From positions 40,140 through 104,139 of the forward strand of contig JAERSH010000049.1 in the NCBI GenBank assembly GCA_016845785.1: DNA of 64,000 nt. Reading direction: 5' to 3'. Shown here piece by piece: positions 21,101 to 55,867 of this stretch; the stretch's first letter is position 1; each line of letters starts with the position of its first letter. The position numbers were made by a program, and so were the translations under genes. The notes below the pieces were generated by a model. That model was not told the origin of the DNA. It saw only the letters and a program-made list of their open reading frames with translations, and made no database searches. Source of the DNA: Fidelibacterota bacterium. Its GTDB lineage: Bacteria; Fidelibacterota; Marinisomatia; Marinisomatales; TCS55.

Positions 21101-21748
21101 GCCAACACTTTAGAGAGTATGGTTTTTATTAATAATGGCAATGGATTTGATCCAGTCCTATTACCATTTGAAGCCCAGGTGACAACGGCTATGCACGCAG
21201 GTGTTGCAGATTTAAACGGTGATGGGCACGAAGATATTTTCTTAAGTCAAAATTTCTTTGCAGTTCAAAATGAAACGGATCGCAATGACTCTGGTCGTGG
21301 TCTTGTTGTTCTGGGAAATGGCAAAGGTGAATTCAAATCATTCCCCGGTCATGAAAGCGGCATCTTGGTTTATGGAGAACAGCGAGGCGCTGCATTTGCA
21401 GATTTTAATATGGATGGTCGAACCGATTTGGTCGTCACACAAAACGGAGCCCAGACCAAACTTTATCAAAACGATCAGGCAAAACCCGGACTTCGCGTTC
21501 GCCTTCGAGGGCCAAAAGAAAACCCATTTTCATTTGGGGCAAAAGTTAGTGTTCAGTATAATGACGGCTCATTTGGGCCTGTGAGAGAAATTCAATCGGG
21601 ATCAGGATATTGGTCCCAGAATTCGCCGGTGCAAGTGTTAGGTCTCAAAGACAATGCTACCCATCTAAAAATAAAATGGCCCGATGGAACTGAATCCACC
21701 GAGCCATTAAAAGGAAATAATTTAACCGTTACGTTTAGTGGCAGTTAA
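18101..21748 (+). CDS. CRTAC1-family lipoprotein with duplicated FG-GAP (VCBS) propeller + ASPIC/UnbV modules
   Basis: 1215 aa with lipobox (IFGC). Many FG-GAP Ca-binding loops (DVNGDGWVDIY, DVDGDRDLDL, DVDNDGDLDLY, DLDNDGDLDIV, DIDGDGDLDLF, DIDNDGDPDLI, DLNGDGHEDIF, DFNMDGRTDLV). Two UnbV-like segments (LRLRGEGNNPQAIGAKIIV...GGRYLSGDD and VRLRGPKENPFSFGAKVSV...SGSGYWSQNS). Confidence 0.85.
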   Translation: MKYKIITIIIFLFIFGCTQSDPGWEKGQIYKVAPLPVPIGSNTTGFIELNPSETGVIAANKIGQKEVMENQHLMHGSGVALGDVNGDGWVDIYIPRIRESNILYMNKGNWIFEDQTKAAGVACEGRHSTGATFADVDGDRDLDLIVTALGGPNSVFLNDGKGNFKERKLPSFLDRPGSTSSTLADVDNDGDLDLYITNYKRLAMRDSLPPPVISFDNTLMEITNNRWIVMPPFNKEYETSVRNNVLLRFEMAEVDQFYLNDGEGNFNLIDITNSHFTDENGDPIQDHLRDWGLMAQFRDINNDTHPDLYICNDFESPDRAWINNGDGTFKAISKLAIRHTSNSSMAVDFADLNKDGNTDFFVTDMMSQSHILQKTQMGTMAPTPLSIGEIDNRPQYMHNTMFLNRGDHTFSEISQFSNTQASEWSWANMFMDVDLDGHEDILITTGHMYDVQDSDALQRQTEALQRINSFDAYKRMIFEFPTLELKNIAFKNKGGLKFENVTDGWGLGNEKDISHGMATADLDNDGDLDIVINRLNQNVGLFRNNTDANRLAIRLRGEGNNPQAIGAKIIVKGYSTVQSREVIAGGRYLSGDDPLQVFAAGNDLMSVEIQWRNGTKTAVDSVKANHLYTIRQINTLPISVDGNADKPLFTDKSELLNHTHYEAPFDDFANQSLLPNRFSQLGPGVAWMDMDEDGDEDLFITGGRGDKMHHFENKDGVAFSPLSTEDSLTQDATTVLSTIDSQGQRALLTAKANFESIDNSPSLITTLSPNGKSNLESISHMAGPMSQADIDGDGDLDLFVGGRVIPNQYPKPASSILYKNENGKLIPDMKQGTSFTDIGLVSGSVFSDIDNDGDPDLILALEWGPITVFQNNNGRFKDVTSNMDLSQYKGWWNGVATGDFNNDGLLDIVATNWGVNTKYHFSPNHPRQVYFDDFDNNNVLDIVEAHYDDDFNDLVPERGFSCISNAMPFVREEKETFLNYAQSSLGDIFGNSLNTAPYLEANTLESMVFINNGNGFDPVLLPFEAQVTTAMHAGVADLNGDGHEDIFLSQNFFAVQNETDRNDSGRGLVVLGNGKGEFKSFPGHESGILVYGEQRGAAFADFNMDGRTDLVVTQNGAQTKLYQNDQAKPGLRVRLRGPKENPFSFGAKVSVQYNDGSFGPVREIQSGSGYWSQNSPVQVLGLKDNATHLKIKWPDGTESTEPLKGNNLTVTFSGS

Positions 21749-22890
21749 TCTGCCATTTTCCAGAAGGCAATACCGCCTGCCTGTTTGCCAATTTCTGCAA
21801 TAGCCACGGGTTTTAGTGTTTTTAAATCGAACACTTCAACTGCACCCGGTTCTTTACCAATCCCTTCAACGCTTACAAATGCATATCGACTGTCTGGTGA
21901 AATAGACACGCCATGTGTGACTTTTCGTGTATTTTTGAATTTGGCTATTTCTTTACCTGTGGATAAATCCCATACACCTGTTTTTGCTGCACTTTTATAG
22001 GTGATGACCAAGTATTTTCCATCATTAGAAACTTCACAGTTATAAGGACCTTTATCTGTCTTAAAGGTGCGGGTCACTTCCCATTTGTTTACATCTACCT
22101 CTACTACATTGTGTGTCCCATTATTCACCACATATAAACGATCATCTTTTGGATGGGGGTAAACCCACGTGGGTTTTTCTGCCGGCATTTTGTGGTCCAT
22201 CTTTGCCATTTTCCCCTTTTTCATACCACCCATATTCATTTTACTGTGATCCATTTTTTTCATCTTATGGCCACTGTGACCGCCCATTTTTTTCATTTTG
22301 GGCGCGGTAGATAGTGTGCGCGTTACGGCCATAGACATGGCATCAATTTCATAAAGCGTTCCGGACATCATGGCCACAGAGTAATGTTTTAATCCATTAT
22401 TCAGTAAGCGTGAACCGTGAGGCATGATACCTGTCTCAACCCGATCCACCTCAATCATTTCATCAGGATCGACAATAGATACGGTGCTGGGCTCGCTATG
22501 ACTACCATGAAGATTAAAATTCACGATATAGAGCAACCCTGTGGCATTGGAGATCCCCATGGTGGCGGGGAATAATCCCAATTCCACCCTGTCCACCATT
22601 TCATCAGAACCGGTTTTGTATTTATACAGATGACCGTAGGGCATCCCATGGGCCATGGATAAATACCAATATTCCCCATCCGGCGATACAGATAGACCAT
22701 GTGGCCCTTCAATCTCCAATGGCCAAACACCCACCGGAATGCGTTTTTCTACATGGGCTGTTTTGCCATCAAATCGTATGAGTGCAACTTCATCTTCAGA
22801 TTCTGCTGCTACGTAGAAATAGTAATCTTTTGCAAATAATCCGCTGATGCCAATCATCGTGACCAGCATTAGATATATGATTCGTTTCAT
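21745..22890 (-). CDS. Secreted YVTN/YncE-like beta-propeller protein with Met/His-rich insert
   Basis: 381 aa with a signal peptide. Repeated GPHGLSVSPDG / THGVSISPDSRY / YNCEVSNDGKY beta-propeller blades. The internal segment KMKKMGGHSGHKMKKMDHSKMNMGGMKKGKMAKMDHKM spans aa ~198-236. Confidence 0.65.
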   Translation of the reverse strand: MKRIIYLMLVTMIGISGLFAKDYYFYVAAESEDEVALIRFDGKTAHVEKRIPVGVWPLEIEGPHGLSVSPDGEYWYLSMAHGMPYGHLYKYKTGSDEMVDRVELGLFPATMGISNATGLLYIVNFNLHGSHSEPSTVSIVDPDEMIEVDRVETGIMPHGSRLLNNGLKHYSVAMMSGTLYEIDAMSMAVTRTLSTAPKMKKMGGHSGHKMKKMDHSKMNMGGMKKGKMAKMDHKMPAEKPTWVYPHPKDDRLYVVNNGTHNVVEVDVNKWEVTRTFKTDKGPYNCEVSNDGKYLVITYKSAAKTGVWDLSTGKEIAKFKNTRKVTHGVSISPDSRYAFVSVEGIGKEPGAVEVFDLKTLKPVAIAEIGKQAGGIAFWKMAD

Positions 22891-22898
22891 TGTTTCCC

Positions 22899-24941
22899 CT
22901 AGTTTGTACCCATGGGCGTATCATCATCTAATTTGATGGCCCATAGTCCATTATTCATATCTGAAAAATAGATTAACCCTTTGTAAGGCATGGTGCCCCA
23001 CACGTTTGGGCGATTCGCCATGAAGCCATCAGGGTCACCGGACATAAAAAATGCAATTTCACGCCCTTGGGCATAGATGTCTCCCATAAGTTCACCGGAA
23101 ATATCCACGATGCGAAGACCGCCCTGATAATAGGATGCCAATAGAGTGTCTCCATGAACCCAATGATTGTGTGAGCCCGCTTCAGGCACTTGATACACGG
23201 CTGTTTCTTTCGGATTTTTTGGATCGGTAAAATCCAAGAAATGGAATCCGCCCGCCATACCAAATTGGTTCCCCCATTCATCTCCAGCGATGATATAAAA
23301 CTTATCCGTGGATTGGCTAATAAATGGGAACGCTGCATGGTTATGTCCATTGGGATCGGCCATGCCACCCAGCTTCACCGGGTTGCCGGGGCTACCTTGA
23401 CCTGCCATGGCAAGAAAAGGATTAAACTGAAGCTTTGATCGATTTGCTTCATTGAACTTTACACCGCCTACATCTACAACGTGAACTCCATCTGCCCAGT
23501 TCGATGAATAGGCCAATCCATCTTTCACCCAAACATCGTGCACGCCATGTCCCGGAGTGCTTAACTCATATCGACCCACCCGAAATGGATTGGATGGATC
23601 TTCAATATTAATAATATCATATTTCCGGCCATTATTTACTGCATACACATGATTCTCATAAATGAAAACATTGTGCACACCACCGGTCATATCATCATTG
23701 AATTCATATGTAATTTTTACATCATATGGGTCTTCAATGTCCAGAATTACAAATCCGTTTTTACGGTTGGATGCCCCTTCTCTGGTGATGACGGCTACAC
23801 GACCATCCTCTGATACTTTCACATCATTAACGGTACGGGCATCAACGGTAACTGTATCAATAATATGCATTTTTGAGGGGTCAGTCACATCCCAAAAGTA
23901 GGCTTCGCCATTTGCGCCCCAAGTTCCCGTAGCGGCAAAATCTTTACCAACATGCTTTCCAATCCCGGGCCAGACCCAAAGGTCAGACGTATTGACATCT
24001 TTCACGGTGCCATGGCCCACAACAGTAATTTTTCTGCCCACATTTCTAGGTACAACCTTTACTGTTTTTCGGGCCGAATAACCGCCTGACTGGGCCATCA
24101 CTGTAAATATCCCCGGAGTTTCCGCAACAAATTTACCTTCTTGGTTAACCAGCGCAGATGCAGGGAGACCAATACCATATTCAGCTTTTCCGGTATAAGA
24201 AAAAACCACGGGCACATCTTCCACGGCGCGACCAGATCGGTTCATGGCTTGAGCAGAAAGGGTGAGTACATCTCCGGTGCGAATTTCATCCTTGTCGGCT
24301 GAAAGGTTCATTTTTCTCACCGGATTTTTTAATGCTTTAATATTAATTGACTCACTGATGCCTTCTACAGATGCAGTGAGCGTAGCTTTGCCGGGTTTTT
24401 TCACCGAAAGATTGCCAAAGCTATCAAAAGTGGCCACATCATTATTGCTGGAAGTAAGAGATACTTTTTCATCCCGTTTCAGTTCGGCTTGGTCAAAAAC
24501 CTCTGTATTGTATTTAACAGATGTGCCTACATATACCTTAATCACGGGATCAACAAAAGCCACCCGATCTAGAGGCGGTGCCGGAACATGAACCGGAATT
24601 TTACCCATAACACGGTCTGATCGTTTTTTCGCAATACTGCGAACAGCCAAACTTAGATTCCCAGGTTTATGTGCTTTTATTGTCACCGTTGCCACGCCTG
24701 TAGAATCACTCATCCTTGGGCTGGATTCTAAAGAACGCCGCGGGCGTCCATATACGTAGAATGGATTGTTTGATAATTTTCCATCTCCATCTACGAGCTT
24801 TATGGTTACAGATCCGGTTTCACCAATATGCAGTGAAAGAGAATCGGGTTCAAATACAAACTGTAGTTTCTTTTCTTCTTCAGCGTCCTGCCCCAGTGAA
24901 AAGCTTAATGTTGTCAGTACGATAGCAATTAGTTTTTTCAT
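22899..24941 (-). CDS. Secreted Big_2 (Ig-like) + LVIVD-repeat beta-propeller protein, paralogue A
   Basis: 680 aa with a signal peptide ending ...SLG|Q. Ig-like Big_2-type segments (KKPGKATLTASVEGISESINIKAL) and a C-terminal propeller with LVIVD-type strands (GLRIVDISGEL, GVHVVDVGG, GFVILDIEDP). Confidence 0.75.
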   Translation of the reverse strand: MKKLIAIVLTTLSFSLGQDAEEEKKLQFVFEPDSLSLHIGETGSVTIKLVDGDGKLSNNPFYVYGRPRRSLESSPRMSDSTGVATVTIKAHKPGNLSLAVRSIAKKRSDRVMGKIPVHVPAPPLDRVAFVDPVIKVYVGTSVKYNTEVFDQAELKRDEKVSLTSSNNDVATFDSFGNLSVKKPGKATLTASVEGISESINIKALKNPVRKMNLSADKDEIRTGDVLTLSAQAMNRSGRAVEDVPVVFSYTGKAEYGIGLPASALVNQEGKFVAETPGIFTVMAQSGGYSARKTVKVVPRNVGRKITVVGHGTVKDVNTSDLWVWPGIGKHVGKDFAATGTWGANGEAYFWDVTDPSKMHIIDTVTVDARTVNDVKVSEDGRVAVITREGASNRKNGFVILDIEDPYDVKITYEFNDDMTGGVHNVFIYENHVYAVNNGRKYDIINIEDPSNPFRVGRYELSTPGHGVHDVWVKDGLAYSSNWADGVHVVDVGGVKFNEANRSKLQFNPFLAMAGQGSPGNPVKLGGMADPNGHNHAAFPFISQSTDKFYIIAGDEWGNQFGMAGGFHFLDFTDPKNPKETAVYQVPEAGSHNHWVHGDTLLASYYQGGLRIVDISGELMGDIYAQGREIAFFMSGDPDGFMANRPNVWGTMPYKGLIYFSDMNNGLWAIKLDDDTPMGTN

Positions 24942-24956
24942 ATTATCCTCCGATGC

Positions 24957-27035
24957 TTATGGTGCATCTGATCCTTTTTCTTTGTCTTCCAATTTGATGC
25001 AGTATAGTCCTGAATTCATGTCTGCAAAGAAAATGTAATCTTTGTATGGCTGCGCGCCCCAGACCATGGGTGCATTCGCAATTTTCCCGTCTTTATGGGC
25101 CGATTGATATACTGCAATTTCTCTGCCTTGCTTATAGATATCTCCAAGCAGTTCACCTGAAATATCTACCACACGGAGACCGCCTTGATAGTTCCCCGCC
25201 AGCAACATATCCCCATATATCCATAAGTTATGTGATCCTGCTTCAGGCACTTGATACAGGGCATCTTCTCTTGGATTGTCTGGATCGGTGAAATTCAAAA
25301 AGTGATATCCGCCACGCGGGTTGGATGGCTCACCACGCGTGGCCCGAACGCCCCATGGAAAAATTTCATCTCCACCCACAATATAAAACTGGCCAGTAGA
25401 TTGGCTCACATATGGAAACGCCGCATGGTTTCTGCCGGTGGGATCACCCATTTCAGCCAACTTGACCGGATTGGATGGACTACCCTGACCTGCTTTTGCC
25501 AAGAGTGGATTAAACTGTGATTTTGATCGATCCGTTTCTTGAAGCTTTTTTGCACCAATATCCACAGCGACAACACCGTCACCCCAATTCGATGAATAGG
25601 CAATGCCATCTTCGATCCAAACATCATGGATGCTATGCCCCGGTGTATCCAACTCAAACACACCCACACGAAATGGGTTGGATGGATCATCAATATTAAT
25701 AATATCATATTTTCGTCCATTATTCACCGCATATACATGGTTGTCATAAATGAACACATTGTGAACGCCACCGGTCATATCATCATTGTATTCATACGTA
25801 ATATCCACATTGTAGGGGTCCGTTACATTCAGCACAACAAATCCATTTTTGCGATTGGAGGCCCCTTCTCTTGTAATAACACCTACGCGCCCATCTTCAG
25901 AAATTTTAACATCATTTACGGTACGCGCATCCACCGTAACTGTATCAATAATGATCATACTGTCTGGATTGGTTACGTCCCAAAAATAAGCTTCTCCATT
26001 GGAGCCCCAAGTGCCGGTGACTGCAAAATCTTTTCCCTCATGTTGATCAACGCCTGGCCACACCCAAAGATCGCTGGTAAGGACTTCGGATATCAATCCG
26101 TGGCCAACAAGAGATACTTTTCTTTTTACATCCCGTTCCACAACTTTAACTGTTTTTTGTGCGGAGTGGCCTCCTGAAGAGGCAGTCAAAGTATACAGTC
26201 CTGCCGTCTCGGCTACGAATCGACCGTCATCTGTAACTAGACCCGAAGCGGGTAAACCAAATGTACCGTAGTCTGATTGACCAATATAAGTATAGGTAAT
26301 GGGCGCATCATCTACAGAACGACCACCCCTGTTTAATGCCTTTGCATTGAGATGCAATACATCACCTGTGCGAATTTCTTCTGTATCAATATCTAAGGTG
26401 ACGCCCCTTACTGGATTTTTGACGACACGAATATCAAAGGATTCCGTCACATCATCTGCCGTGGCAGAGATGGTTGTTTTTCCTTTTTTAAATGTTTCTA
26501 GATTGCCAAATATATCAAAATCAGCAACCTTTGGATTGCTCGAAATTAATTGGACATCCACTTCCGATCTATTCAAGCCTGCCTCATCTGTCACATCTAC
26601 TGATAATGGTGTTGCCGTCCCCACATAGAGTTTAGAGGGTGTTTGATTAAAAGTCACTTGGTCGATAGGCGGATAAGGAACATTCACAACCAACTTATCC
26701 CGAATGCGGTCGTCTCTCTTCACCGTAATTGTCTGTGTCCGTAATATAAGTCTACCGGGTTTGTGGGCTTTTAATGTAACGGTTGCAACGCCCGTTGAGT
26801 CGCTTATTCGGGGAGAGACAGATAAAGATTTTCTCGCTCCAAATACATAAAATGGATTTTGGGCTAAATTCCCCGATTCATCCAATAGTCGGATGGTTAT
26901 TTCTTTAGTTTCCCCCACATGGATTTCGAGTGAATCCACATCAAATTCAAAATGAAACTTATCTTTTTGATCTTCTTGGCCAATTACCATTGCAAACAGC
27001 AACAGGGGCGCCAAGAGTCGGCGCATTGCATTCAT
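24957..27035 (-). CDS. Secreted Big_2 (Ig-like) + LVIVD-repeat beta-propeller protein, paralogue B
   Basis: 692 aa, collinear with paralogue A and sharing long identical runs (DDMTGGVHNVFIY, HVYAVNNGRKYDIINI, TVTVDARTVNDVK, ITREGASNRKNGFV, YQVPEAGSHN, GGLRVVDISGEL). Confidence 0.75.
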   Translation of the reverse strand: MNAMRRLLAPLLLFAMVIGQEDQKDKFHFEFDVDSLEIHVGETKEITIRLLDESGNLAQNPFYVFGARKSLSVSPRISDSTGVATVTLKAHKPGRLILRTQTITVKRDDRIRDKLVVNVPYPPIDQVTFNQTPSKLYVGTATPLSVDVTDEAGLNRSEVDVQLISSNPKVADFDIFGNLETFKKGKTTISATADDVTESFDIRVVKNPVRGVTLDIDTEEIRTGDVLHLNAKALNRGGRSVDDAPITYTYIGQSDYGTFGLPASGLVTDDGRFVAETAGLYTLTASSGGHSAQKTVKVVERDVKRKVSLVGHGLISEVLTSDLWVWPGVDQHEGKDFAVTGTWGSNGEAYFWDVTNPDSMIIIDTVTVDARTVNDVKISEDGRVGVITREGASNRKNGFVVLNVTDPYNVDITYEYNDDMTGGVHNVFIYDNHVYAVNNGRKYDIINIDDPSNPFRVGVFELDTPGHSIHDVWIEDGIAYSSNWGDGVVAVDIGAKKLQETDRSKSQFNPLLAKAGQGSPSNPVKLAEMGDPTGRNHAAFPYVSQSTGQFYIVGGDEIFPWGVRATRGEPSNPRGGYHFLNFTDPDNPREDALYQVPEAGSHNLWIYGDMLLAGNYQGGLRVVDISGELLGDIYKQGREIAVYQSAHKDGKIANAPMVWGAQPYKDYIFFADMNSGLYCIKLEDKEKGSDAP

Positions 27036-27138
27036 AAGTAATTCCTCCTCTAATTCATACTTTGTAAAAATGCTGGGGAATATACAACCAAAATTGATTT
27101 TAAATCTTAAGATTAAAGAATTTTATATAAAAAATAGA

Positions 27139-29346
27139 TTAAGGTTGTTGTATAAATCGGGCGAGCTCGTTTTTCATTATCGCTCCAATCTCATGGTTTG
27201 GGTTAAGAGCAAGTCCCCGATTTAAAATGATTGCCGCTTCTTTCAGTTGTTGTTGTCTTATTTTAACACCCGCAAGGTAAATGTATCCCTCCGTCAATGC
27301 AGGGTCCAATTCTACCGCTTTGGCCAAATGATTGGCTGCCAACATATCTTTTTTTAATTGAAACAATAGATGACCTATACCTAAGTGGGCTGTAGGATTA
27401 AAGGTGTTAATCTCTAATGATCGCATATAGGCTTCGATGGCAATATCCCGTTGCCCATTTCTGCTTTGAGCATATCCAAGTCCGGCCCACCCTTGCCAAT
27501 CCATAGGATTTGATTGCACAATTTCACCATAGGTTTTAACGGCCTTATCCATATCATCTACTGATAGGTATGCCTCGGCTAACCCCAGTTTTGCTCGGAT
27601 ATTATTGGGCCAAATCTTTACAGATTTTTGGTAATGATGGATGCCGGGTATTGCCATGCCACCTCGGATTAACTGTTCAGCTCTATATGCGAGCGCCGTA
27701 CTCCATCGTGTACGAATTTTGCTCTGATCTCTACCCGCATTCACCAACGATTGAATTGTCAATAGGCCAATTGTTTCATCATAGTCAATAAGTAGGTCCA
27801 AATAGGCCAATGCAACACCACGGATATCCAAATCTTTATTTTCAGACAAATGCTTTAGTTTGACAATCAACGCTTCAGATGGGTTGGATGCCCCTTCTGA
27901 CATGAATGCTTTGGCTAACCCTGCAAATACTTGCGGTGCCGGATCTTTATTAGAACCGATTAACGATAAAATACCTTCTTGTGTCATGTTGCCTTTTTCA
28001 TAATGAAAAAGAGCCGTTTCTAAATTATGAAGAGGCTTAAGATCACCGTACCATATTTCTACTTGATCTACAATTGATTGAGTGGACATATCCACATGGC
28101 ATTGCTGACAGGCATTCTTTAATCCCAATTGTTTATCCAATCCAGGCCTTGGTATAGAAATGGTGTGATCTGCGCGGGCAAACTTAAGCACATTTCCAAC
28201 CGCTTGATGTTGCTGGAAAGGCATATGGCATGATGTACACTGGCTTCCTTTTGATTCCGGTTTATGAAATGTATGGGCGGTTATATTTTCATTTTTTGAC
28301 ATATGGCAAGATGTGCATTGACCATTATCAAATCGACCTTTAAGTGGATTGCGGTTTACATCCTGATATCCATTTGAATGGGGATTGTGGCAATCCACAC
28401 ACGTCATGGACCCATTAAGATAACAATCACTAAAGACGTGGTTTTGCTGATAACCAAATGCTCTAACTCTGCCATCCGGAAAGTAGGGGTTGCCCCCCAA
28501 CATGGCAAATTTCGTACTGAAATACGATTCAAAATCCATCCCAGGGAGGTAGCCAGGACGCAGCATATCTTTTAGTGCGTGGCACTGGGCGCAGACATTA
28601 ACTGATGCTTCTTTCGTATTGGTTTTTAAAGATTGAATACCAGTATATCCCTTAATGATATTTTCGCCATAATCCATTAATGAAACATGGGTTTCCCCGG
28701 GACCATGACAGGATTCACAATTAATGGACAAATCTGTAAAGTGGGTTTCATATTTGCCTTTGGCAGGTTGAAATTCGGTGATGAGTTGACTACCGTGACA
28801 TTGCTGACAGTTCTTTTTTTCAGTAAGAAGGCCTAAAGATCGACTGGGCGGCCACTCAGAAAATTGTCTAAGAGATATAGATTCACTTGCCGGCAGCCAG
28901 CCAGAAAGATCATTGGTTTCAAAGAACCAGGTTTGCTTTCCCGGGTGATAATCAAAAGGCAGTAACCGCATGGTGCCATCAGGGAATAGACCGAAATATG
29001 TTTGCGTACCTCCCCCATATAAATGGCCACCACCAACCACGCCAATTACTTCATATTTAACTTCTTTGAATCCCGTTTCTTTGGCGCGAAAAAAATAGCG
29101 ACCATCCTTTTTATATGGAATAAACCACCCATTTTTAACCGTGATCTTTTTCCCATCAAATGGAGCCAAAACTCTTTTTTCATCTGGGAAGCCGCCAGCC
29201 TTAGCATGGGTAGAATTCTGCCAAGTACTAAATTGATCCGGATGACATGTGGCACAAGCGTCTGAACCGACAAATTGATTAGATTGACCAAATAAACATG
29301 ACCACCCTAAGGCAAGGATGCTTATACGCCATCGAATACAGTTCAT
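27139..29346 (-). CDS. Secreted octahaem c-type cytochrome with C-terminal TPR domain
   Basis: 735 aa with a signal peptide. Eight CxxCH motifs (CATCH, CQQCH, CESCH, CAQCH, CVDCH, CTSCH, CTSCH, CQQCH) in the first ~430 aa. TPR-like repeats in the last ~200 aa (AEAYLSVDDMDKAVKTYGEIVQSNP..., AIEAYMRSLEINTFNP..., LAKAVELDP...). Confidence 0.85.
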   Translation of the reverse strand: MNCIRWRISILALGWSCLFGQSNQFVGSDACATCHPDQFSTWQNSTHAKAGGFPDEKRVLAPFDGKKITVKNGWFIPYKKDGRYFFRAKETGFKEVKYEVIGVVGGGHLYGGGTQTYFGLFPDGTMRLLPFDYHPGKQTWFFETNDLSGWLPASESISLRQFSEWPPSRSLGLLTEKKNCQQCHGSQLITEFQPAKGKYETHFTDLSINCESCHGPGETHVSLMDYGENIIKGYTGIQSLKTNTKEASVNVCAQCHALKDMLRPGYLPGMDFESYFSTKFAMLGGNPYFPDGRVRAFGYQQNHVFSDCYLNGSMTCVDCHNPHSNGYQDVNRNPLKGRFDNGQCTSCHMSKNENITAHTFHKPESKGSQCTSCHMPFQQHQAVGNVLKFARADHTISIPRPGLDKQLGLKNACQQCHVDMSTQSIVDQVEIWYGDLKPLHNLETALFHYEKGNMTQEGILSLIGSNKDPAPQVFAGLAKAFMSEGASNPSEALIVKLKHLSENKDLDIRGVALAYLDLLIDYDETIGLLTIQSLVNAGRDQSKIRTRWSTALAYRAEQLIRGGMAIPGIHHYQKSVKIWPNNIRAKLGLAEAYLSVDDMDKAVKTYGEIVQSNPMDWQGWAGLGYAQSRNGQRDIAIEAYMRSLEINTFNPTAHLGIGHLLFQLKKDMLAANHLAKAVELDPALTEGYIYLAGVKIRQQQLKEAAIILNRGLALNPNHEIGAIMKNELARFIQQP

Positions 29347-29352
29347 TATAAT

Positions 29353-30972
29353 TTAATTGTTTGACCAGTCCGGCGGATCACATTCACAAAATGTGCGAAT
29401 CTGATTTACATAGTTTACAATTTCTTCTCGACTGAGTTTTTCGCCCCACCCGGGCATAAAATGACTTTTATTCATAATCCGCCCTCCAACATAAATGGTG
29501 TCAAATAATGTATCATCTGCCCGTTCACCCATCAATTTTTTATCGGTTAAATCACCGGGCTTTGTGGGTAAAAATTTCGCATTGAACCCATTGCCACTTC
29601 CATTGAATCCGTGACATGCTGCACAGTTTTCAATATATTTATTTTTCGTTGAATAAGGTCGATTTTCTAAAAGATTTAGATATTGAATATTTCCATTGGA
29701 TGTCCGTTGTGCTAAATAAGACTGTAAAAGGGGTAATATTGTTGGGTCCATTTTTGTTTTTGGCATAATACTTTCCGGCATTACCATATGGGGCATTTCG
29801 ATCGCCATTTTTATAAACCCATCTGTTAAACGTTTCCCCACATTACTTAAGCTTGGGCCAATCTTTCCTCCTTGCCCATTTAATTCATGACAGCCAAGGC
29901 AGGGGAGAAAATCGTTTAGCAATCGCTCAACCTTGTTGGATTGAAAATCATATATGTCCGGTAGTTTAGTCTTTGACACTGCACCCCCCATCCAATTGGA
30001 CAATATTTCAATTTCAGCATCTGTTAAATGATAATTGGGCATCCTACTCCCCGTCCCTGGGAAAAACCCGTTGGGTCTAATGGGTGGAGTTTCTTTTAAA
30101 TATTGAGTAAGCCATGCAGAGGGTGTCTTCATCCGTTGATGAGTTAGGTTGGGGGCATTGTGTGTGTCAAACCAATTATCTTCGCCACTCATGCTGTGAC
30201 AGGCCTGACAATTTTGGGATAGAAATATGTCTCGACCTATAGTTGCTGATGCACCGGGATTTGCTTTTTTTGCCTGTTTAAGATTACTAGAAAGGGATTC
30301 ATTTTTCGATTCTGCAACACCTTTTAAATAACCGATCATGGTATCAATATTTTTTTTGTCTGCTTTATTGTCTTCGCTAAAAAAGCTGGGCATAGGTGAT
30401 TCTCGGGGGACGTATGCAGATGGTTTAAGAATTAAATCATAGATCCAATCTGGCTGAAGGCGAACCGCCGCATCGGTGAGATCAGTAGATTTTGCCTGGC
30501 CCAATTCATTTAATGTATGGCAGACAGTACATTGGAATTCATTATGGATCAGTGCAAGTCCTTCTGCATTTTTCTTTGCTTTTACTTTTGAAAGTGTGCG
30601 GTTCTTTGGCAGAGCCTGTCGGGTCATCAGGTATTGGGTCAAGGCCAATGCTTCTCCATCAGAAAAACCAAAATCCGGCATCCGGGAGTTGCCAATATGC
30701 TGGCGCACTTTTTGGGACGATTTTAGATAATCGAAGAGGAATGTTTCATTATACCGTACACCGGCATAGCTCAGATCAGGGGCTCTGTTATTGATTATTT
30801 CAGATTGATCTACACCACTGTGGCAATTGCCGCAGCCCAGTTCGTTGACTAGCTCATTGGGAGGTAAATTATTTTGACCCAAGGTAAAGGAAATAATAAA
30901 AAAAAGGAATATTCTTCGGAAACCATAGCATATTGAATTGCGAATTAAAATTTTGGTTCTCATATTTTTCAT
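29353..30972 (-). CDS. Secreted multidomain class-I cytochrome c (five monohaem modules)
   Basis: Five CxxCH motifs (CGNCH, CTVCH, CQACH, CLGCH, CAACH), each followed by a distal Met context (SRMPDF, SPMPSF, SRMPNY, IMPKT, FMPGWG). The track ORF starts at a TTG (31077) directly after a stop. The signal peptide MKNMRTKILIRNSICYGFRRIFLFFIISFTLG|Q argues for the ATG at 30972 (or 30963). Confidence 0.85.
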   Translation of the reverse strand: MKNMRTKILIRNSICYGFRRIFLFFIISFTLGQNNLPPNELVNELGCGNCHSGVDQSEIINNRAPDLSYAGVRYNETFLFDYLKSSQKVRQHIGNSRMPDFGFSDGEALALTQYLMTRQALPKNRTLSKVKAKKNAEGLALIHNEFQCTVCHTLNELGQAKSTDLTDAAVRLQPDWIYDLILKPSAYVPRESPMPSFFSEDNKADKKNIDTMIGYLKGVAESKNESLSSNLKQAKKANPGASATIGRDIFLSQNCQACHSMSGEDNWFDTHNAPNLTHQRMKTPSAWLTQYLKETPPIRPNGFFPGTGSRMPNYHLTDAEIEILSNWMGGAVSKTKLPDIYDFQSNKVERLLNDFLPCLGCHELNGQGGKIGPSLSNVGKRLTDGFIKMAIEMPHMVMPESIMPKTKMDPTILPLLQSYLAQRTSNGNIQYLNLLENRPYSTKNKYIENCAACHGFNGSGNGFNAKFLPTKPGDLTDKKLMGERADDTLFDTIYVGGRIMNKSHFMPGWGEKLSREEIVNYVNQIRTFCECDPPDWSNN

Positions 30973-31277
30973 ATTTCTGAAAAGGGGAATCTTTAGAGCA
31001 TGCTTTATAGTTGCTTGCCTTAAAATCGATAACCTTCTTTTGGTTTGATTCCCCAAGTTAGGGCTGTTTGCTTTCAATTATGAATTAGATTTTCCTTTAA
31101 TCTTTTCAATACAACCCATAAGAACCGGGATTGCCAAAGCTATTACCAAATAACAAGTCAATACACCGATAAAAAGCGCTGCCCATAAATCCCAGCCTTC
31201 AAAAGATTATCTGGGTTATTACAGCAAATACAATAGCTATATTGATGATAAATCTTTCTGAGCGTTACATCTATTTC

Positions 31278-32018
31278 CTACTTCCTAAGCCTAGCCTTTG
31301 AAAACCGAGATTCTGCAATCTCACTATCAAACTCAATCTCATCAATGACCCATTCCGTTCCTTTGCTGTTCCGTTTCAATTCATCCTTAAATATGAAGCG
31401 GGTGGGGAACCACCTGCCCTGCACTTTTTTGATGCCGTCCATGGTGGATGTTTTTAAGAGCTTACCGCTTTTGGCATACAGTTCTTCCTTCATAGGTAGG
31501 AGATATTCCTTGTCAATCCACGCCCTGCGCATGGGATAGGACAATCCTTTCACTTTTGCCGTCAACAACATAATCCAGTGATCTCGTCCATCTATTTCAA
31601 CAGATCCTTCTAATGTGGCTTCATAGAGTTCCATCAGGGGGCGGTCTTCCATCATATCATTGTAGGACATATCTGAACCCATAACCGATTGCCGCAGCAT
31701 ATGCCCGGAGATCTGAATTACTCGGTCTGTTTGGGGTGAATAGGTCCAGAGTTTATCATCCAGTTTGAGCATCTTTGTCCCTGCTTCGCGAGGGGGGGAA
31801 AGATATTCAGTAAACGCCTTGTCGATACCAACAACCCAGTTCTTGGATTCGATGGTACGGCTGGAGCGCCGTCCATGGACAATCATTTTACTGGTTAGGA
31901 TTCGGCTTTTTGCATTCAGGTTATTGTCCATGGCCCTAATAATATCTTGCACAGACATATCATTAGATTGACCTAGAAGAAATGCAAAAGATAAAATAGA
32001 AATGAGAATTTTGATCAT
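31278..32018 (-). CDS. LolA-like outer-membrane lipoprotein-sorting family protein
   Basis: 246 aa with a signal peptide. The pattern (KSRILTSKMIVHGRRSSRTIESKNWV..., KMLKLDDKLWTYSPQTDRVIQISG, MGSDMSYNDM) fits the LolA-like domain commonly encoded next to FtsX-type ABC permeases. Overlaps the upstream permease by 4 nt. Confidence 0.6.
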   Translation of the reverse strand: MIKILISILSFAFLLGQSNDMSVQDIIRAMDNNLNAKSRILTSKMIVHGRRSSRTIESKNWVVGIDKAFTEYLSPPREAGTKMLKLDDKLWTYSPQTDRVIQISGHMLRQSVMGSDMSYNDMMEDRPLMELYEATLEGSVEIDGRDHWIMLLTAKVKGLSYPMRRAWIDKEYLLPMKEELYAKSGKLLKTSTMDGIKKVQGRWFPTRFIFKDELKRNSKGTEWVIDEIEFDSEIAESRFSKARLRK

Positions 32019-33298
32019 GTTTCCAGTTCCTTAAATAATTGTGCCATTTCCCGCTTGTATATTGCCATACCCGCCAGCATGGTTCCCAGCACTGTAGCCA
32101 AAACACCGGGTATGAATCCAATATAAAAAAGATCAGGTGTAACCTGGGCGTAGAATATATTGGGCGCAACCATTGACGAACTTGAAAGCGCTTCCATTCC
32201 CTTTGTATAATCTATGCCGTTCTCCTGCACGTAGTAGGTGAGAGCAATTCCAATGCCTGTTCCCATAGCCGTCCCCGCCAACCCGATAATTACCGCTTCA
32301 GAAATCATAGAACGGTACACCTGGCCCTTGGACTCTCCAAGCGCCAGTCGCAGGCCCACTTCGCCGTAACGGCGCAGGCCACTCATGAGGCCCATATTCC
32401 ACAGTACAACCATCACCACAACAAGAAAAATTCCACCCATTATAGCCATCATAGCATTACTGATATCCACCATGGACCCCATCTGGTTCCCATCCCGCAG
32501 GGCGAGCATAAAGGGACTGAAAATATCCAGACTATCACTATGGATCTCATTATATTTACTGCGCAATGCAACAGCTGCTTCATCATCATAATATAATGAA
32601 TGGGCAAAACCGAAAATAGCTGAAGCGGCGTTATCCATATCCAATGCAGCGCGGGCGCCGGATAGATCAACAAGCATCATTTGTTTATCAGTCTGTCCCT
32701 TGCGCAAGTTAAAGGTTCCTATAATAGTGAAATTGTAGGTTGTAAATGCGTTGTCCATGGTTGAGCCGATGAAAGTGACCTGTTCACCAGCTTGTATATT
32801 CAGTTGATCTGCCAGTTTTGAACTGATAAGGGCATCATCTCTGTTTTCAGGCAGTCTGCCACTCACCAGAGATCGTTCCAATTCCCAGATTTCTACTTCT
32901 CGAGATTCATCAGAAAAGAAATCTATACCAAGCGCAAGGACCGGGCCTTGCGCTTTTGTTTCGCCATTTTCGTCTGGAACATCCAAAAGGCCCGCAAACG
33001 TGATGCGTGGCGACCAGAAAAATTCCGGATAATCCTGTTCCAGATTATTAATCAACTGGTCAACATCCAGCAAGGCCAGATCGTTGGGCATAAGCTGGCT
33101 CTCTTCATTATAGGCCCGGGTCACCACTTTTTCATGGCCCGTCAGTATCACTGCCGTATCAAGCAGCAGGCTGTTCATTGTTCCCTTCATGAAGCCGATT
33201 GAAAAAATTACCAGTGTGACTGTAAGGGTAATGACCAAAACAGGAAACAGACTGCGGGAACGGTCTCGAAGCAATCCTTTGGTTAAAAATCTAATCAT
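32015..33298 (-). CDS. ABC transporter permease, FtsX/MacB/LolC-like
   Basis: 427 aa with an N-terminal TM, a large extracytoplasmic domain and three C-terminal TM helices (the FtsX fold pattern). Overlaps neighbours by 4 nt. Confidence 0.8.
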   Translation of the reverse strand: MIRFLTKGLLRDRSRSLFPVLVITLTVTLVIFSIGFMKGTMNSLLLDTAVILTGHEKVVTRAYNEESQLMPNDLALLDVDQLINNLEQDYPEFFWSPRITFAGLLDVPDENGETKAQGPVLALGIDFFSDESREVEIWELERSLVSGRLPENRDDALISSKLADQLNIQAGEQVTFIGSTMDNAFTTYNFTIIGTFNLRKGQTDKQMMLVDLSGARAALDMDNAASAIFGFAHSLYYDDEAAVALRSKYNEIHSDSLDIFSPFMLALRDGNQMGSMVDISNAMMAIMGGIFLVVVMVVLWNMGLMSGLRRYGEVGLRLALGESKGQVYRSMISEAVIIGLAGTAMGTGIGIALTYYVQENGIDYTKGMEALSSSSMVAPNIFYAQVTPDLFYIGFIPGVLATVLGTMLAGMAIYKREMAQLFKELET

Positions 33299-34470
33299 GC
33301 CACCACCTTGCCCCGCAGGGCATCTGTGGGCTGCATACGGGATATACGCCGGGAAGGGATATAGCTCACAATTAGAACAACCACCGAAACAAGTACAGTC
33401 GTTGACACAATAAGGCCTATGGTATAAATCGGCATAAGGCGCTTGGCCATAATCATCCCCATTTCCGAGTAATCAATGGGCAGTGGAATTCCGTTAGCAC
33501 CAAAATACCATAGTATGGGGCCAAAAAAGATCAATGTTGCCACTGCTGCCAGCACTGCGTTAAGCCCTCCTTCAAGGGTGAATAATCCCACGACCCTTTG
33601 GCGGGTCATGCCTATGGCCATCAGTGTGCCGATCTCTCTCCCCCGGCGGAAGATAGACAATACCTGGGCATTAAAGATGCCCATAGCGGCCAGGGCTAAT
33701 ATAATCATATACATAATGATGGCGCCCGGTTTGTCTGCTTCGATGATGGCCTCCATGTCCTGCACCAGATAATTGATATCACGGGGAATCCAGCCTCCCT
33801 TGTCTTGAACTGTTGGAAGACCTTTTTCATAAGTCACATAGGTGGCTTCTTGTTCCATGGCCAGCATGGTCTGTGCTTTTTTTAGCGGTATCCAAATATG
33901 CCCCATATCCAGTTTGAAATTCTCCGTATCCATTATATGTACCACCGTACCTTCATCTGCATCATAGGTGCGGTCTGCATCCAGCCAGCGGATGGTAAAA
34001 ACATCACCCACTTTCAGCTTGGTATCACTGGCCATTCCTTTTCCGATCAGCACCGGAATGGAAATATCGTCATGTCCCGCAAGTGCGCCGGTGGGCATAT
34101 TTACAATATTTTGATCTGGCGGAATGCCTTTCATAATGGCCGGCATGATGCGACCGCCGGGATAGATGGATGCCTGGCTTACCAAAACCGGAAACGCTTT
34201 TTTCTGATCCACAAGAGATTGTATTTCTGCAGGTAAAGCAGAATGCGCATCTTCAAATTTCATGGGATCCAGTGGGTCATATTCCGGATGCCAGTAGGCT
34301 CCACCGGCAATCTCTGTATCCATGGTTACCTGTTTGGCGTGTTGGAGCATGCCATCGTACATGGCCGACATGAACAGGATTAGGAAAAATGAAAAAGCGG
34401 TTACAAGTACATTCAGAAAAGTGCGAAGTCTGGCACCCAAGAGATTTTTCAGTGCAATTTTAAAAAGCAT
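33295..34470 (-). CDS. ABC transporter permease, FtsX/MacB/LolC-like
   Basis: 391 aa with the same topology as the adjacent permease, plus an FtsX C-terminal segment (TLMAIGMTRQRVVGLFTLEGGL). Confidence 0.8.
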   Translation of the reverse strand: MLFKIALKNLLGARLRTFLNVLVTAFSFFLILFMSAMYDGMLQHAKQVTMDTEIAGGAYWHPEYDPLDPMKFEDAHSALPAEIQSLVDQKKAFPVLVSQASIYPGGRIMPAIMKGIPPDQNIVNMPTGALAGHDDISIPVLIGKGMASDTKLKVGDVFTIRWLDADRTYDADEGTVVHIMDTENFKLDMGHIWIPLKKAQTMLAMEQEATYVTYEKGLPTVQDKGGWIPRDINYLVQDMEAIIEADKPGAIIMYMIILALAAMGIFNAQVLSIFRRGREIGTLMAIGMTRQRVVGLFTLEGGLNAVLAAVATLIFFGPILWYFGANGIPLPIDYSEMGMIMAKRLMPIYTIGLIVSTTVLVSVVVLIVSYIPSRRISRMQPTDALRGKVVA

Positions 34471-34472
34471 CC

Positions 34473-35186
34473 CTAATCGCGGGCCTTGGGATTATCAATT
34501 ATTTCATCTTCAGTTATTTCACCGTCATCCAGATGAATAATGCGCCTCAGATAGGCCATGATTTTTTCATCATGAGTGGCAAAGATGAAAGAAGTGGACA
34601 ATTCTTGATTTAATCGTACCAGAATTTTCATAATATGATGAGAATTCTCTGCGTCCAGGTTGGCCGTGGGTTCATCGGCCAGTACCAGTGCAGGCTGATG
34701 TACAATTGCCCGTGCAATAGCCGTCCGTTGACATTCACCACCGCTTAACATATTGGGTCGGGAATCCATTTTATCTGTTAGGCCGACTGATTCGACAGCC
34801 TGCTCTACCATCGATCTTCGTTCATCTGTATCCATTTTATTTAAAATCAATGGCAGTTCTACATTTTCAAAAACCGTATAAACAGGAAGCAGGTTATAGC
34901 TCTGGAAAATAAAGCCCATGTACTTACGCCGGAGACGGGCCCGCTCTCCATGGGATGTGTCATTTAGAGCTTGGCCCAGTACACTTACCTTCCCTTTGGT
35001 GGGGGAATCCAGACCACCGATAATGTTCAGCAATGTGGTTTTTCCTGATCCTGATGGCCCTATCAAGCCGGTGAATTCGCCTTTATTTATGGTCAGGGAC
35101 AAATCCTTGAGCGCAGTGAAAAAATCTCCGCCCACCGGAAACTGCTTAACCAGATTTTGAATAGTAACTACGGAATCATTTGTCAT
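34473..35186 (-). CDS. ABC transporter ATP-binding protein (LolD/MacB-type)
   Basis: 237 aa with Walker A GPSGSGKTTLLN, signature LSGGECQRTAIARA and Walker B LVLADEPTANLD. Confidence 0.93.
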   Translation of the reverse strand: MTNDSVVTIQNLVKQFPVGGDFFTALKDLSLTINKGEFTGLIGPSGSGKTTLLNIIGGLDSPTKGKVSVLGQALNDTSHGERARLRRKYMGFIFQSYNLLPVYTVFENVELPLILNKMDTDERRSMVEQAVESVGLTDKMDSRPNMLSGGECQRTAIARAIVHQPALVLADEPTANLDAENSHHIMKILVRLNQELSTSFIFATHDEKIMAYLRRIIHLDDGEITEDEIIDNPKARD

Positions 35187-35194
35187 GTTTTATC

Positions 35195-36286
35195 CTAATG
35201 ATTATATACGAACATAAATTGAAATCCCCGGCCGAAACCGACAGAAGATTCCGGTGAATAGTCTGAAGCAAGACCGTATTCACTTCGGTACGGGTTCAGA
35301 GATAAGATAAAATTTAAACTAAAGCTGTCATAAGTCACACTCCAACGTATATAATTGTATGCGCGGTTTTTTGTCCAATCCTGCTGGCTTATATACATTA
35401 TTTGGTGAATCATGCCAATCGGCAGCATAGCCATAATTGCGCTATAATTATTGGAAGATGTATCTAAGGATGTTTCTGAATCAACATACATGGCTTCCGC
35501 CATGACCATTATTCCGCTGCCAATCGGAAGTGTATAATCGGCACCAATGGTCAACATCCCGATGCGCGATTGGTCAGCTGAAATCAGTGCACTTTCATTC
35601 CATAGTCCAATCAAGCCGTCATACCTGAAATCAACAGCATAGCGGTTATGTCTTTCATTTATCATTACGCCTGACTGCCCGATCATTCGAACTGAATCTC
35701 CCGGATCATGGTGAATTGTTAATCCCCATTCTCCAATTCTAGTTGAGAATTCTGCCCTGCCTCCAGGGGACAGGTAATTGTTTTCATCCCAGATTGCCCA
35801 ACCCCAAAATGACGATGTATTGGATCGGAACCATCGTAGTCGAAGAGCGCTTACACCGTCGGTTTGTCCCTTTGCATCAGTCAAATCGTAGGTATCAAAC
35901 CATGACAGGGGGCGTAATACCTGGGAGGGCCCAAAAATAATCTTTTGCAACCCCGCGCGAGCATCAAGTGTTTCGGAAGCATAGCGCACCCAAAGTCTAT
36001 GGTTCTGGTAATATTCTGACAGCAGTGTACCGCCAGTAAATGTGTTAACCGTGCGGTAGCCCCATTCCGCATCCAACAGCCTATTGTCCCCAAAGTCCTT
36101 CCCGACTGATAATGTTGGGATATAGCCCGCTATGGATTCGTAGGCAGACTGTCCCGCCGCCGCATCATTCCCCGCATAAACGCTAGCCCAAAATTGACCT
36201 TTTATATCTATCTGGGCAGGTGCAGCTTCTGAACAAATGAAAAGGAATAGTCCGGCAATCAGGACACCATTAATTATGCTTTGCAT
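35195..36286 (-). CDS. Hypothetical secreted protein, probable outer-membrane beta-barrel
   Basis: Signal peptide MQSIINGVLIAGLFLFICSEAAPA|Q (ATG at 36286; the track start at 36370 adds an unlikely extension). The sequence has alternating hydrophobic, aromatic-rich character throughout and an aromatic-rich C-terminus (FQFMFVYNH). Confidence 0.45.
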   Translation of the reverse strand: MQSIINGVLIAGLFLFICSEAAPAQIDIKGQFWASVYAGNDAAAGQSAYESIAGYIPTLSVGKDFGDNRLLDAEWGYRTVNTFTGGTLLSEYYQNHRLWVRYASETLDARAGLQKIIFGPSQVLRPLSWFDTYDLTDAKGQTDGVSALRLRWFRSNTSSFWGWAIWDENNYLSPGGRAEFSTRIGEWGLTIHHDPGDSVRMIGQSGVMINERHNRYAVDFRYDGLIGLWNESALISADQSRIGMLTIGADYTLPIGSGIMVMAEAMYVDSETSLDTSSNNYSAIMAMLPIGMIHQIMYISQQDWTKNRAYNYIRWSVTYDSFSLNFILSLNPYRSEYGLASDYSPESSVGFGRGFQFMFVYNH

Positions 36287-38119: not shown

Positions 38120-38147
38120 CATTGGCGTCCCCAATGGGGATTTCAAT

Positions 38148-48710: not shown

Positions 48711-48719
48711 TTTTTACTC

Positions 48720-49643: not shown

Positions 49644-49646
49644 GGT

Positions 49647-50978: not shown

Positions 50979-50981
50979 ATA

Positions 50982-51941: not shown

Positions 51942-51944
51942 TTA

Positions 51945-52601: not shown

Positions 52602-52628
52602 AGCAATTGCCTAAATTAACCTTTGATT

Positions 52629-53897: not shown

Positions 53898-53965
53898 TTT
53901 CACTTCCCACTTTCCTTTTCATTAACCTATACTTGCCGAACTTAAATCGTAGGTAAAAGGTTATT

Positions 53966-55843: not shown

Positions 55844-55867
55844 TCCAGTCATCGATACAAATCTGAA

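Follow-up and report, generated by a model that had tools for sequence, protein, structure and literature searches.

A widespread pair of secreted LVIVD and YVTN propellers, beside multihaem cytochromes in Marinimicrobia, with putative metallohydrolase-like features

The closest characterised relative of propellers built from LVIVD repeats is Sb-PTE, the haloalkylphosphorus hydrolase of Sphingobium sp. TCM1 (5HRM; the Sphingomonas structure is 5IOJ), a secreted seven-bladed propeller of LVIVD-like repeats encoded on a plasmid as a recently recruited xenobiotic enzyme. Mabanglo et al. (Biochemistry 2016; cited in PMC11656708) reportedly described a binuclear manganese centre in its propeller hub, with Glu-201 (bridging), His-258, His-317, His-389, Glu-407 and His-475 as the ligands. 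The YVTN/YncE propellers are represented by the Methanosarcina S-layer domain 1L0Q, Escherichia coli YncE, the beta subunits of hydrazine synthase and QHNDH, and NirF/NirN, several of them being cofactor-less partner subunits of cytochrome-containing enzymes. Here we examine five consecutive genes, P1 to P5, in which both propeller types meet two multihaem cytochromes c. They lie in a stretch of 64,000 nucleotides (positions 40,140 to 104,139 of contig JAERSH010000049.1, assembly GCA_016845785.1), hereafter the window, which belongs to a metagenome-assembled genome of Marinimicrobia (SAR406, Neomarinimicrobiota/Fidelibacterota).

The initial annotation of this DNA had proposed the five genes as a candidate extracytoplasmic redox module. 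Our analysis does not favour a machine dedicated to redox chemistry, and what had looked like a five-gene "module" is better seen as a two-gene core of wide distribution that stands beside further genes in one lineage. With moderate confidence, we read this core as a secreted pair consisting of a metallohydrolase-like LVIVD propeller and an accessory YVTN propeller, to which the cytochromes P5 and P4 would be a lineage-specific and dispensable neighbour. Neither the cluster nor a function for LVIVD proteins going beyond presumed attachment was described in the literature searched (on LVIVD and on the cytochromes of Marinimicrobia/SAR406), and proteins near-identical to those of the window have been named in generic terms only ("YncE family protein", "hypothetical protein", "c-type cytochrome"). 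The genes are open reading frames (ORFs) of the window, numbered from the 3' to the 5' end of the minus-strand run, with P5 most upstream:

29353..30972, minus strand: P5, secreted pentahaem class-I cytochrome c, 539 aa from ATG
27139..29346, minus strand: P4, secreted octahaem cytochrome that ends in a TPR array, 735 aa
27036..27138, minus strand: AT-rich P4-P3 gap of 103 bp, candidate internal promoter, with a strong Shine-Dalgarno sequence (GAGGAGG) before P3
24957..27035, minus strand: P3, signal peptide, about three immunoglobulin (Ig)-like domains and a seven-bladed LVIVD propeller (24960-26144), 692 aa
22899..24941, minus strand: P2, with signal peptide, Ig-like domains (about three) and seven-bladed LVIVD propeller (22902-24056) arranged as in P3, 680 aa
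21745..22890, minus strand: P1, secreted seven-bladed YVTN/YncE-type propeller, 381 aa
22177..22302, minus strand: disordered segment of P1 rich in Met, His and Lys (residues ~197-238), inserted after blade 4 and before blade 5
21675..21708, minus strand: terminator-like hairpin with a 14-bp stem and a T-run, just past the P1 stop codon

The ORF listing and the translations agree with the initial annotation on the arrangement of the genes and on the gaps between them (P5-P4 6 bp, P4-P3 103 bp, P3-P2 15 bp, P2-P1 8 bp), and the base composition of the locus is unremarkable. Its claim of secretion without a membrane anchor also holds: each of the five proteins begins with a hydrophobic segment that resembles a signal peptide (judged by eye and by a simple scan, with no dedicated predictor), a Kyte-Doolittle scan of P1-P5 found no further hydrophobic segment, and no obvious lipobox was seen by eye or simple scan. 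With cleavage sites placed by eye, the signal peptide ends in G|Q in four of the five proteins (LG-Q in P2, IG-Q in P3, FG-Q in P4 and LG-Q in P5), as in the "Q-rule" of Bacteroidetes (an N-terminal Gln after signal peptidase I), here in a Marinimicrobia genome.

Homology of the LVIVD propellers to Sb-PTE

P2 and P3 are paralogues, as had been proposed, and share 62% identity. Their assigned domain architecture stands in part: P2 exceeds the threshold of the Pfam family LVIVD (PF08309; 24.7 bits, cutoff 20.2), with no match listed for P3, and the Ig-like Big_1/Big_2 matches of both proteins are present but all sub-threshold. Both also fall short of the cutoff of 100 for choice-of-anchor B (TIGR04312), at 83 bits for P2 and 57 bits for P3. 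Their relatives among 1.84 billion cluster representatives number 8077 at E<=1e-3 and 161 at E<=1e-30, and LVIVD proteins are thus numerous, without having had a functional handle in the searched literature. The AlphaFold2 (AF2) model of the P2 propeller, built on a 119-sequence alignment, has seven four-stranded blades (predicted local distance difference test, pLDDT, 91.8; predicted template modelling score, pTM, 0.91).

When this model was compared with the Protein Data Bank (PDB) by Foldseek, the top match was 5HRM (E 7.6e-13; template modelling score, TM, 0.69/0.55, the former on the query), about 1000-fold ahead in E of generic WD40 matches. A hidden Markov model of the P2 family reached the same enzymes among PDB sequences (5HRM at E 1.2e-8, 5IOJ at E 3e-8); this family profile was required, given that P2 alone found an Ig-domain match only, and the matches of a deeper profile, A3, were mostly to Ig domains. 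Aligned by hhalign with Sb-PTE, the sequence of which was taken from the Sphingobium plasmid, the P2 family scored a probability of 93.9% in local and 97.7% in global mode, and LVIVD is the only Pfam match of Sb-PTE itself. The LVIVD family is remotely homologous to Sb-PTE, beyond a shared fold, and the statement that it was without biochemical precedent has to be given up in favour of a characterised, non-redox phosphotriesterase.

Positions 201, 258, 317, 389, 407 and 475 of the Sb-PTE sequence are indeed E, H, H, H, E and H. Alignments of 15 to 119 diverse members of the P2 family (34-97% identity) show D373, E388, H423, H468, D469, H535, E555, H591, N592, W594 and R627 to be invariant or nearly so, together with several Asp and Gly. 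Two of the Sb-PTE ligands, H258 and H317, have the invariant H423 and H468 of P2 as their direct partners in the alignment. Another three, H389, E407 and H475, are assigned to H535, E555 and H591 by the order of the blades, given that Sb-PTE and P2 each have seven of them and can be aligned with confidence over blades I-IV; local motifs agree with this assignment (GGFH...(18)...E against GHNH...(20)...E, GSHF against GSHN, and FFAGGVRIVDL against YYQGGLRIVDI). Five of the six metal ligands of Sb-PTE, which follow the pattern E/H/H/H/E/H on successive blades, would thus correspond to family-invariant His or Glu. The putative ligand residues of P2 are 90-100% conserved over 58-119 diverse sequences, and P3 retains the family-invariant His/Glu set. 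In the P2 model, the innermost strands of consecutive blades each carry one of the four ligand-type His, always at the same end, an arrangement that would place them around the propeller axis. P2 and P3 probably carry an Sb-PTE-like two-metal site, with H423, H468, H535, E555 and H591, plus N372/D373, as its putative binuclear ligands. The initial annotation had counted homology to a characterised non-redox protein lacking a metal site as an argument against its own proposal; remote homology to a non-redox enzyme was found, but with putative metal-ligand residues kept, and it weighs against the proposal in part only.

Sb-PTE differs from P2 in having no Ig-like stalk, in its long insertions and in its three disulfides (P2 has no Cys at all), and, unlike that plasmid-borne enzyme, the P2 family is chromosomal and occurs in many phyla. 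Within Marinimicrobia the two paralogues keep a fixed order, P3-type then P2-type, and differ beside two of the putative ligands, where P2-type proteins have an extra His (P2 residues 533 and 593; GHNH and SHNHW) and P3-type proteins read RNH and SHNLW; these differences and the fixed order could reflect a heteromer or two specificities. Four LVIVD paralogues follow each other in the order P3-type, P2-type, P3-type, P2-type in one set of contigs (L004-L006, 3186-9983), and the identical N-terminal stretch of about 45 residues in both P3-type copies points to a recent segmental duplication.

The LVIVD-P1 pair across phyla

A survey of one genome per GTDB species found at least 591 LVIVD relatives among the species representatives, and 79 loci were fetched. 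The hosts include Marinimicrobia, Balneolaceae, Cyclobacteriaceae, Acidobacteriota, Gemmatimonadota, Planctomycetota and Saprospiraceae, with cultured Algoriphagus and Gracilimonas among them. Clustering of the neighbouring ORFs returned the P1 type as the sole broadly recurrent family (63 of 80 loci), and for 59 of 62 P1-type genes the preceding gene, in the same orientation, is an LVIVD gene, with a spacing of typically -4 to +30 bp. Of 60 loci from outside Marinimicrobia, 50 have an LVIVD gene followed directly by one of P1 type; none of these 60 has a P4- or P5-like gene nearby, and an ORF with at least two haem motifs lies within 10 kb in only three. Precomputed Pfam labels show the pair as a free-standing two-gene unit amid unrelated genes in two Bacteroidota genomes. 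What at least seven bacterial phyla have in common is therefore only the combination of the LVIVD gene or genes with the P1-type gene. There are one to four LVIVD paralogues for each P1 gene, which suggests that P1 is a shared accessory or common subunit.

Other conserved neighbours of the pair reflect synteny at the level of lineages only, namely GcvP and ZIP in Balneolaceae and a CRTAC1-like gene in Marinimicrobia. In fourteen Balneolaceae loci (L026, at 13101-13949, and 13 others), the pair is closely followed by the gene of a metal transporter of the ZIP family and by a conserved gene without annotation (about 240 aa), with the glycine dehydrogenase gene gcvP upstream on the opposite strand. 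Long P1-type ORFs that resembled LVIVD-YVTN fusions (L044, L048, L057, L078) proved to be over-extended ORF calls in GC-rich genomes.

P1 is a YVTN propeller with a Met/His-rich insert, as the initial annotation had it. It scores 46.6 bits against PF21783 (YncE/YVTN), above the cutoff of 27.1, and its AF2 model (pLDDT 85.3) is a seven-bladed propeller of YVTN type, the best Foldseek matches of which are 1L0Q (E 7.7e-17, TM 0.72), YncE and the beta subunits of QHNDH and hydrazine synthase. Close relatives are named "YncE family protein" by NCBI, but P1 is not a YncE orthologue, since it reaches only 26.6 against a cutoff of 400 on the YncE equivalog NF052280. With a mean column identity of 55-61% across phyla, the P1 family is better conserved than the LVIVD family. 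Its invariant residues include H64, H81, H128, H158, H246, H326, M156, M174 and M175, along with E30, D33, E59, N124, R161, E181, Y283, N284, K299, D333, E342, Q370 and W377, and they map, by the AF2 secondary structure, to the D-A and B-C loops, that is, to one face of the propeller, where H64, H158 and H326 stand at the start of innermost strands. P1 shares fold and repeat type with the YVTN/YncE propellers introduced above, and differs from them in its invariant His/Met face, in its disordered Met/His-rich insert, in lying far below every NCBIfam equivalog cutoff and in its fixed place beside an LVIVD gene, for which none of them is known. In structure and by profile it resembles generic YVTN propellers only, among which P1 and its orthologues make up a subfamily that is new and sharply delimited. 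The invariant His-rich sites in both propeller types suggest that P1 and the LVIVD propellers are probably metalloproteins rather than inert adhesins.

The insert sits within a D-A loop of the invariant His/Met face. Residues 188-245, a stretch of 58 residues that spans it, hold 10 Met and 4 His, and residues 200-233 are disordered in the AF2 model, with pLDDT below 50. The stretch aligned to 188-245 is 20-85 residues long in 59 orthologues and mostly Met/His-rich, with literal MDHSKM repeats in orthologues from several phyla (L041, L052, L066, L068, L074); some lineages have a His/Asp/Glu-rich insert instead, and a minority (L050, L070, L076, L079) lack the motif or nearly so. Met/His segments that bind copper are familiar from the octapeptide repeats of CopA/PcoA. 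The insert has a composition typical of such segments, and would resemble the octapeptides of CopA/PcoA/CopB, the Ctr1 N-terminus and the Met-rich lid of CueO in its MDHSKM/MxxM/HxH make-up, its disorder and its position over a metal-type site, the difference being that it is inserted in a YVTN propeller, whereas the known segments belong to a multicopper oxidase, a transporter or an outer-membrane protein. For the Ctr1 N-terminus, His/Met motifs have been shown to bind copper (PMC9117721).

Several propeller enzymes were considered as an identity for P1 and rejected. NosZ is excluded by the scores (44 bits against a cutoff of 700 for L-NosZ, 16 against 625 for Sec-type NosZ) and by the lack of a CuA cupredoxin in a protein that consists of the propeller only; thiocyanate dehydrogenase (TcDH) shows no specific affinity (profile E 0.23); the subunits of hydrazine synthase and QHNDH score far below their cutoffs (beta 48 bits against 560, QH_beta 19 against 223); and the match to Cytochrom_D1 (27.0 against 25.5) covers a partial stretch in a propeller of seven blades instead of the eight of cd1. 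None of NosZ, TcDH and cd1 nitrite reductase is among the top 50 Foldseek matches of P1, and neither the alpha or gamma subunits of hydrazine synthase nor haem-d1 genes occur in the scanned neighbourhood (7269-42199). Like the propellers of the cluster, NosZ (clade III L-NosZ included), TcDH and cd1 are secreted and have a His-lined hub, and c-type cytochromes serve them as electron partners, but P1 has no cupredoxin or haem-c domain fused to it.

Cytochromes in Marinimicrobia and the competing readings

The cytochromes themselves are as first annotated, with five and eight CxxCH motifs confirmed in the translations and by Pfam. The motifs of P5 (CGNCH, CTVCH, CQACH, CLGCH and CAACH at residues 47, 148, 255, 358 and 450) lie in a protein that matches PF00034 with 109 bits over four stretches and PF13442 with 93 bits; its ORF could be extended to a TTG at 31077, but orthologues favour the ATG at 30972. 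The eight motifs of P4 are followed by TPR repeats, and the protein matches the Pfam families TPR, Cytochrome_C7, C554, Paired_CXXCH and an MtrC domain. CxxCH motifs in recognisable cytochrome c domains, combined with an export signal, qualify P5 and P4 as class-I/multihaem cytochromes c with predicted haem attachment. Pfam scans covered most of the larger ORFs of the window (those in 7269-42199 plus ten of those beyond 43543), and there, in keeping with the initial annotation, no known respiratory catalytic subunit was found. SoxX was rejected as an identity for P5: its 83.8 bits on TIGR04485 (cutoff 61) are reached only when two partial matches within its five domains are added up, and no sox genes are present among the scanned ORFs.

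A metagenome scan based on P5 yielded 49 Marinimicrobia-type loci with 49-98% identity to P5, in the recurrent order PALP - EEP - u261 - P5 - (P4) - (u391-ABC-FtsX-FtsX-LolA) - P3 - P2 - P1. The additional members are encoded in the window as follows:

31278..36370, minus strand: upstream block of u391 (outer-membrane protein (OMP)-like), an ABC ATPase, two FtsX/MacB-type permeases and a LolA-like protein, assigned by Pfam and NCBIfam
36270..37055, minus strand: u261, unannotated secreted protein, possible outer-membrane beta-barrel, without a Pfam or NCBIfam match

Around the pair this order varies. The u261 gene precedes P5 in nearly all the Marinimicrobia loci, but P4 is absent from six P5 loci, and an unannotated OMP-like protein of 388 aa ending in ...RIRAHF takes its place in L004-L006. 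In the window the ABC/LolA block comes before P5; many other contigs (L100-L116, L134) have it between P4 and P3, and others lack it. It is therefore a mobile neighbour rather than a fixed member. In L008, with a P2 89% identical to that of the window, u261 is followed directly by P3-P2-P1 without cytochromes, which are likewise missing from the site in L010 and L011. A lone LVIVD paralogue, 74% identical to P2 and with neither P1 nor cytochromes nearby, is encoded at about 10001-15100 in L001-L003. Its neighbours are genes of the Fur family, of CobW/COG0523 and of DUF1826, and TonB_C and MerC lie near; this gene set looks like a zinc-limitation (Zur) regulon. Unrelated flanking genes such as PALP and EEP are equally syntenic in the phylum, which makes adjacency weak evidence of shared function.

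Under the reading that we favour, the LVIVD propellers, raised on a stalk of three Ig-like domains, would hold two divalent metals at the hub through four His and carboxylates and would hydrolyse an extracytoplasmic ester-type substrate in a metal-dependent manner, phosphoester (phosphotriester) being the sole precedent. P1 would be an obligate accessory or co-subunit that docks with the LVIVD proteins or matures them, and its flexible Met/His loop over the His/Met face may capture a metal ion (the motif being of copper type) or gate the site. The pair in Marinimicrobia stands downstream of the pentahaem and octahaem-TPR cytochromes and is possibly co-transcribed with them. The many other predicted hydrolases in the window (NPP phosphodiesterase, EEP, peptidases, PAF-AH-like esterase) were counted in favour of hydrolysis. 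Several observations weigh against this reading. The relationship to Sb-PTE is remote, at 14-15% identity to P2. The automated alignment of the C-terminal half slips by one repeat, which was counted as evidence neither way but leaves three of the ligand equivalences to blade counting. The bridging Glu-201 is not exactly kept, as it aligns 2-3 residues before the invariant N372/D373, and the sixth ligand is for that reason uncertain. The Sb-PTE gene has no P1-like partner nearby, so that P1 is not generally needed by this fold. Ligand sets of four His with carboxylates also serve redox chemistry, for example in flavodiiron proteins. Finally, of the 26 Marinimicrobia contigs that are informative, 23 have LVIVD genes behind P5 in the same orientation, at P5 identities of 49-95%, and this persistent adjacency, along with the lack of a terminator in the P4-P3 gap, would be compatible with a functional link within Marinimicrobia. 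A scan of that gap reported no terminator-like hairpin and no sigma-70 consensus match; it may be an internal promoter, but with no hairpin in it, the propeller genes of the window may be co-transcribed with the cytochromes.

The redox module of the initial annotation therefore finds part of its basis intact, in the tight packing of the genes and the P5 linkage, and loses another part to the pair standing alone in other phyla; likewise, of the co-conservation on which it was to be judged, that of the propeller pair holds across phyla, and that of P5 and P4 is confined to Marinimicrobia and variable. Its successor, in which P5, P4, P3, P2 and P1 form one extracytoplasmic oxidoreductase in Marinimicrobia only, with 13 haems exchanging electrons with the LVIVD di-metal centre and/or a His/Met copper site of P1 to convert a small-molecule substrate, appears fairly unlikely. 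The gaps of 6, 15 and 8 bp on one strand, the hairpin-free 103-bp gap, an order kept in most informative contigs down to 49% P5 identity, and invariant metal-type residues in both propeller types all agree with it. So does the kinship of P1 with partners of c-type cytochromes, its family profile matching hydrazine synthase beta (1.4e-19), NirF (2e-11) and, marginally, Cytochrom_D1, and its structure being near that of QHNDH beta. The genes that adjoin the propeller enzyme of clade III nosZ, as described in the corresponding paper, encode cytochromes and ABC transporters (PMC13477213), which was counted in favour as well. These points are outweighed by the 50 of 60 loci of other phyla in which the pair stands without an adjacent cytochrome, by the three Marinimicrobia loci lacking cytochromes at the site and the dispensability of P4, by the synteny of the whole region, by the absence from P1 of any specific similarity to NosZ or TcDH, and by the nearest characterised LVIVD relative being a hydrolase. 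A broader version, in which the 13-haem cytochromes and both propellers make up a new oxidoreductase in Marinimicrobia, with redox chemistry on an inorganic or small organic substrate at a hydrolase-derived di-metal centre (analogous to flavodiiron proteins) and/or the P1 copper site, and the cytochrome-free pairs of other phyla draw on generic periplasmic electron carriers, strikes us as distinctly unlikely when taken as a whole.

E. coli YncE, the fold namesake of P1, is Fur-regulated, which was counted in favour of a role in periplasmic or surface copper or zinc handling instead of catalysis on an organic substrate. P1 would then capture ions, the LVIVD proteins bind or store them, and the cytochromes of Marinimicrobia interconvert Cu(I) and Cu(II). 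The MDHSKM-type and His/Asp/Glu-rich variants of the insert across phyla, the invariant His and Met of P1, the ZIP transporter gene in Balneolaceae and the company of the lone LVIVD paralogue point the same way. Each of these metal-gene neighbours is nevertheless confined to one lineage, no CopA/CusF/CopC-type or regulator genes are conserved beside the pair in the loci examined, and a full Sb-PTE-like ligand set, together with dozens of invariant P1 residues, exceeds what storage needs, and the Ig-like stalks suggest reach to an external substrate; we hold metal handling to be quite improbable. The view that the propellers are non-catalytic structural or adhesion proteins of the surface (S-layer or adhesin type), with incidental cytochromes nearby, draws on the archaeal surface proteins in which YVTN and LVIVD repeats were first described (PMC2447325), on the Methanosarcina S-layer domain as the top structural match of P1, on Ig-like domains that resemble LigA, S-layer and teneurin-like modules in profile searches, and on a Tenderiales paper that assumes an attachment role for an LVIVD protein (bioRxiv 10.1101/2022.05.06.490989). 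Four His and two acidic residues at a hub and about 50 face residues of P1, near-absolute over seven phyla, would be atypical for adhesins; LVIVD members without Ig domains exist, and the homology is specific to an enzyme with the same ligand pattern, all of which makes this view very unlikely.

The metallohydrolase-like pair turns "hypothetical surface protein" into a concrete hypothesis, testable in cultured Algoriphagus and Gracilimonas, in that one large conserved LVIVD subfamily is now linked to the binuclear centre of Sb-PTE and to a specific YVTN partner with a copper-type loop. If ester or phosphoester hydrolysis is correct, the pair would represent a new class of secreted hydrolases in marine and soil nutrient scavenging. 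Marinimicrobia are among the most abundant bacteria of the dark, oxygen-poor ocean, and a functional cytochrome linkage would, if real, mean an unrecognised redox reaction in bacteria of oxygen-minimum zones.

Neighbouring genes

Convergent with P1, and overlapping it by 4 bp at the 3' end, runs a gene for a lipoprotein-type CRTAC1-like protein of 1215 aa with FG-GAP/VCBS and ASPIC/UnbV domains (18101-21748, plus strand), which many loci of Marinimicrobia keep as a neighbour of the propellers; in L010, L011, L014, L103 and L104, genes of CRTAC type but smaller size (about 707 aa) are found upstream of P3. The hairpin at 21675-21708, the strongest terminator-like one of the region, lies inside the coding 3' end of this gene and may act on the transcripts from either direction. 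At 12 kb from the cluster, the window also encodes a protein with a YHYH domain (PF14240, function unknown; 43543-44511, plus strand), and a homologue with 64% identity directly follows an LVIVD gene in L012, in the usual position of P1.

The hydrolases of the window are encoded at 37040-38173 and 47226-57244 and comprise an EEP-family phosphoesterase (the only one whose secretion was judged, by eye), an S10 carboxypeptidase, an FGE-sulfatase-type protein, a type I phosphodiesterase/NPP and a PAF-AH/PETase-like esterase. Two sodium:solute symporters are encoded there as well, and the hydrolase-rich neighbourhood fits a lifestyle of degrading dissolved organic matter. Further away, at 11009-12223 on the plus strand, lies the gene for a full-length serpin (PF00079, E 2e-111).

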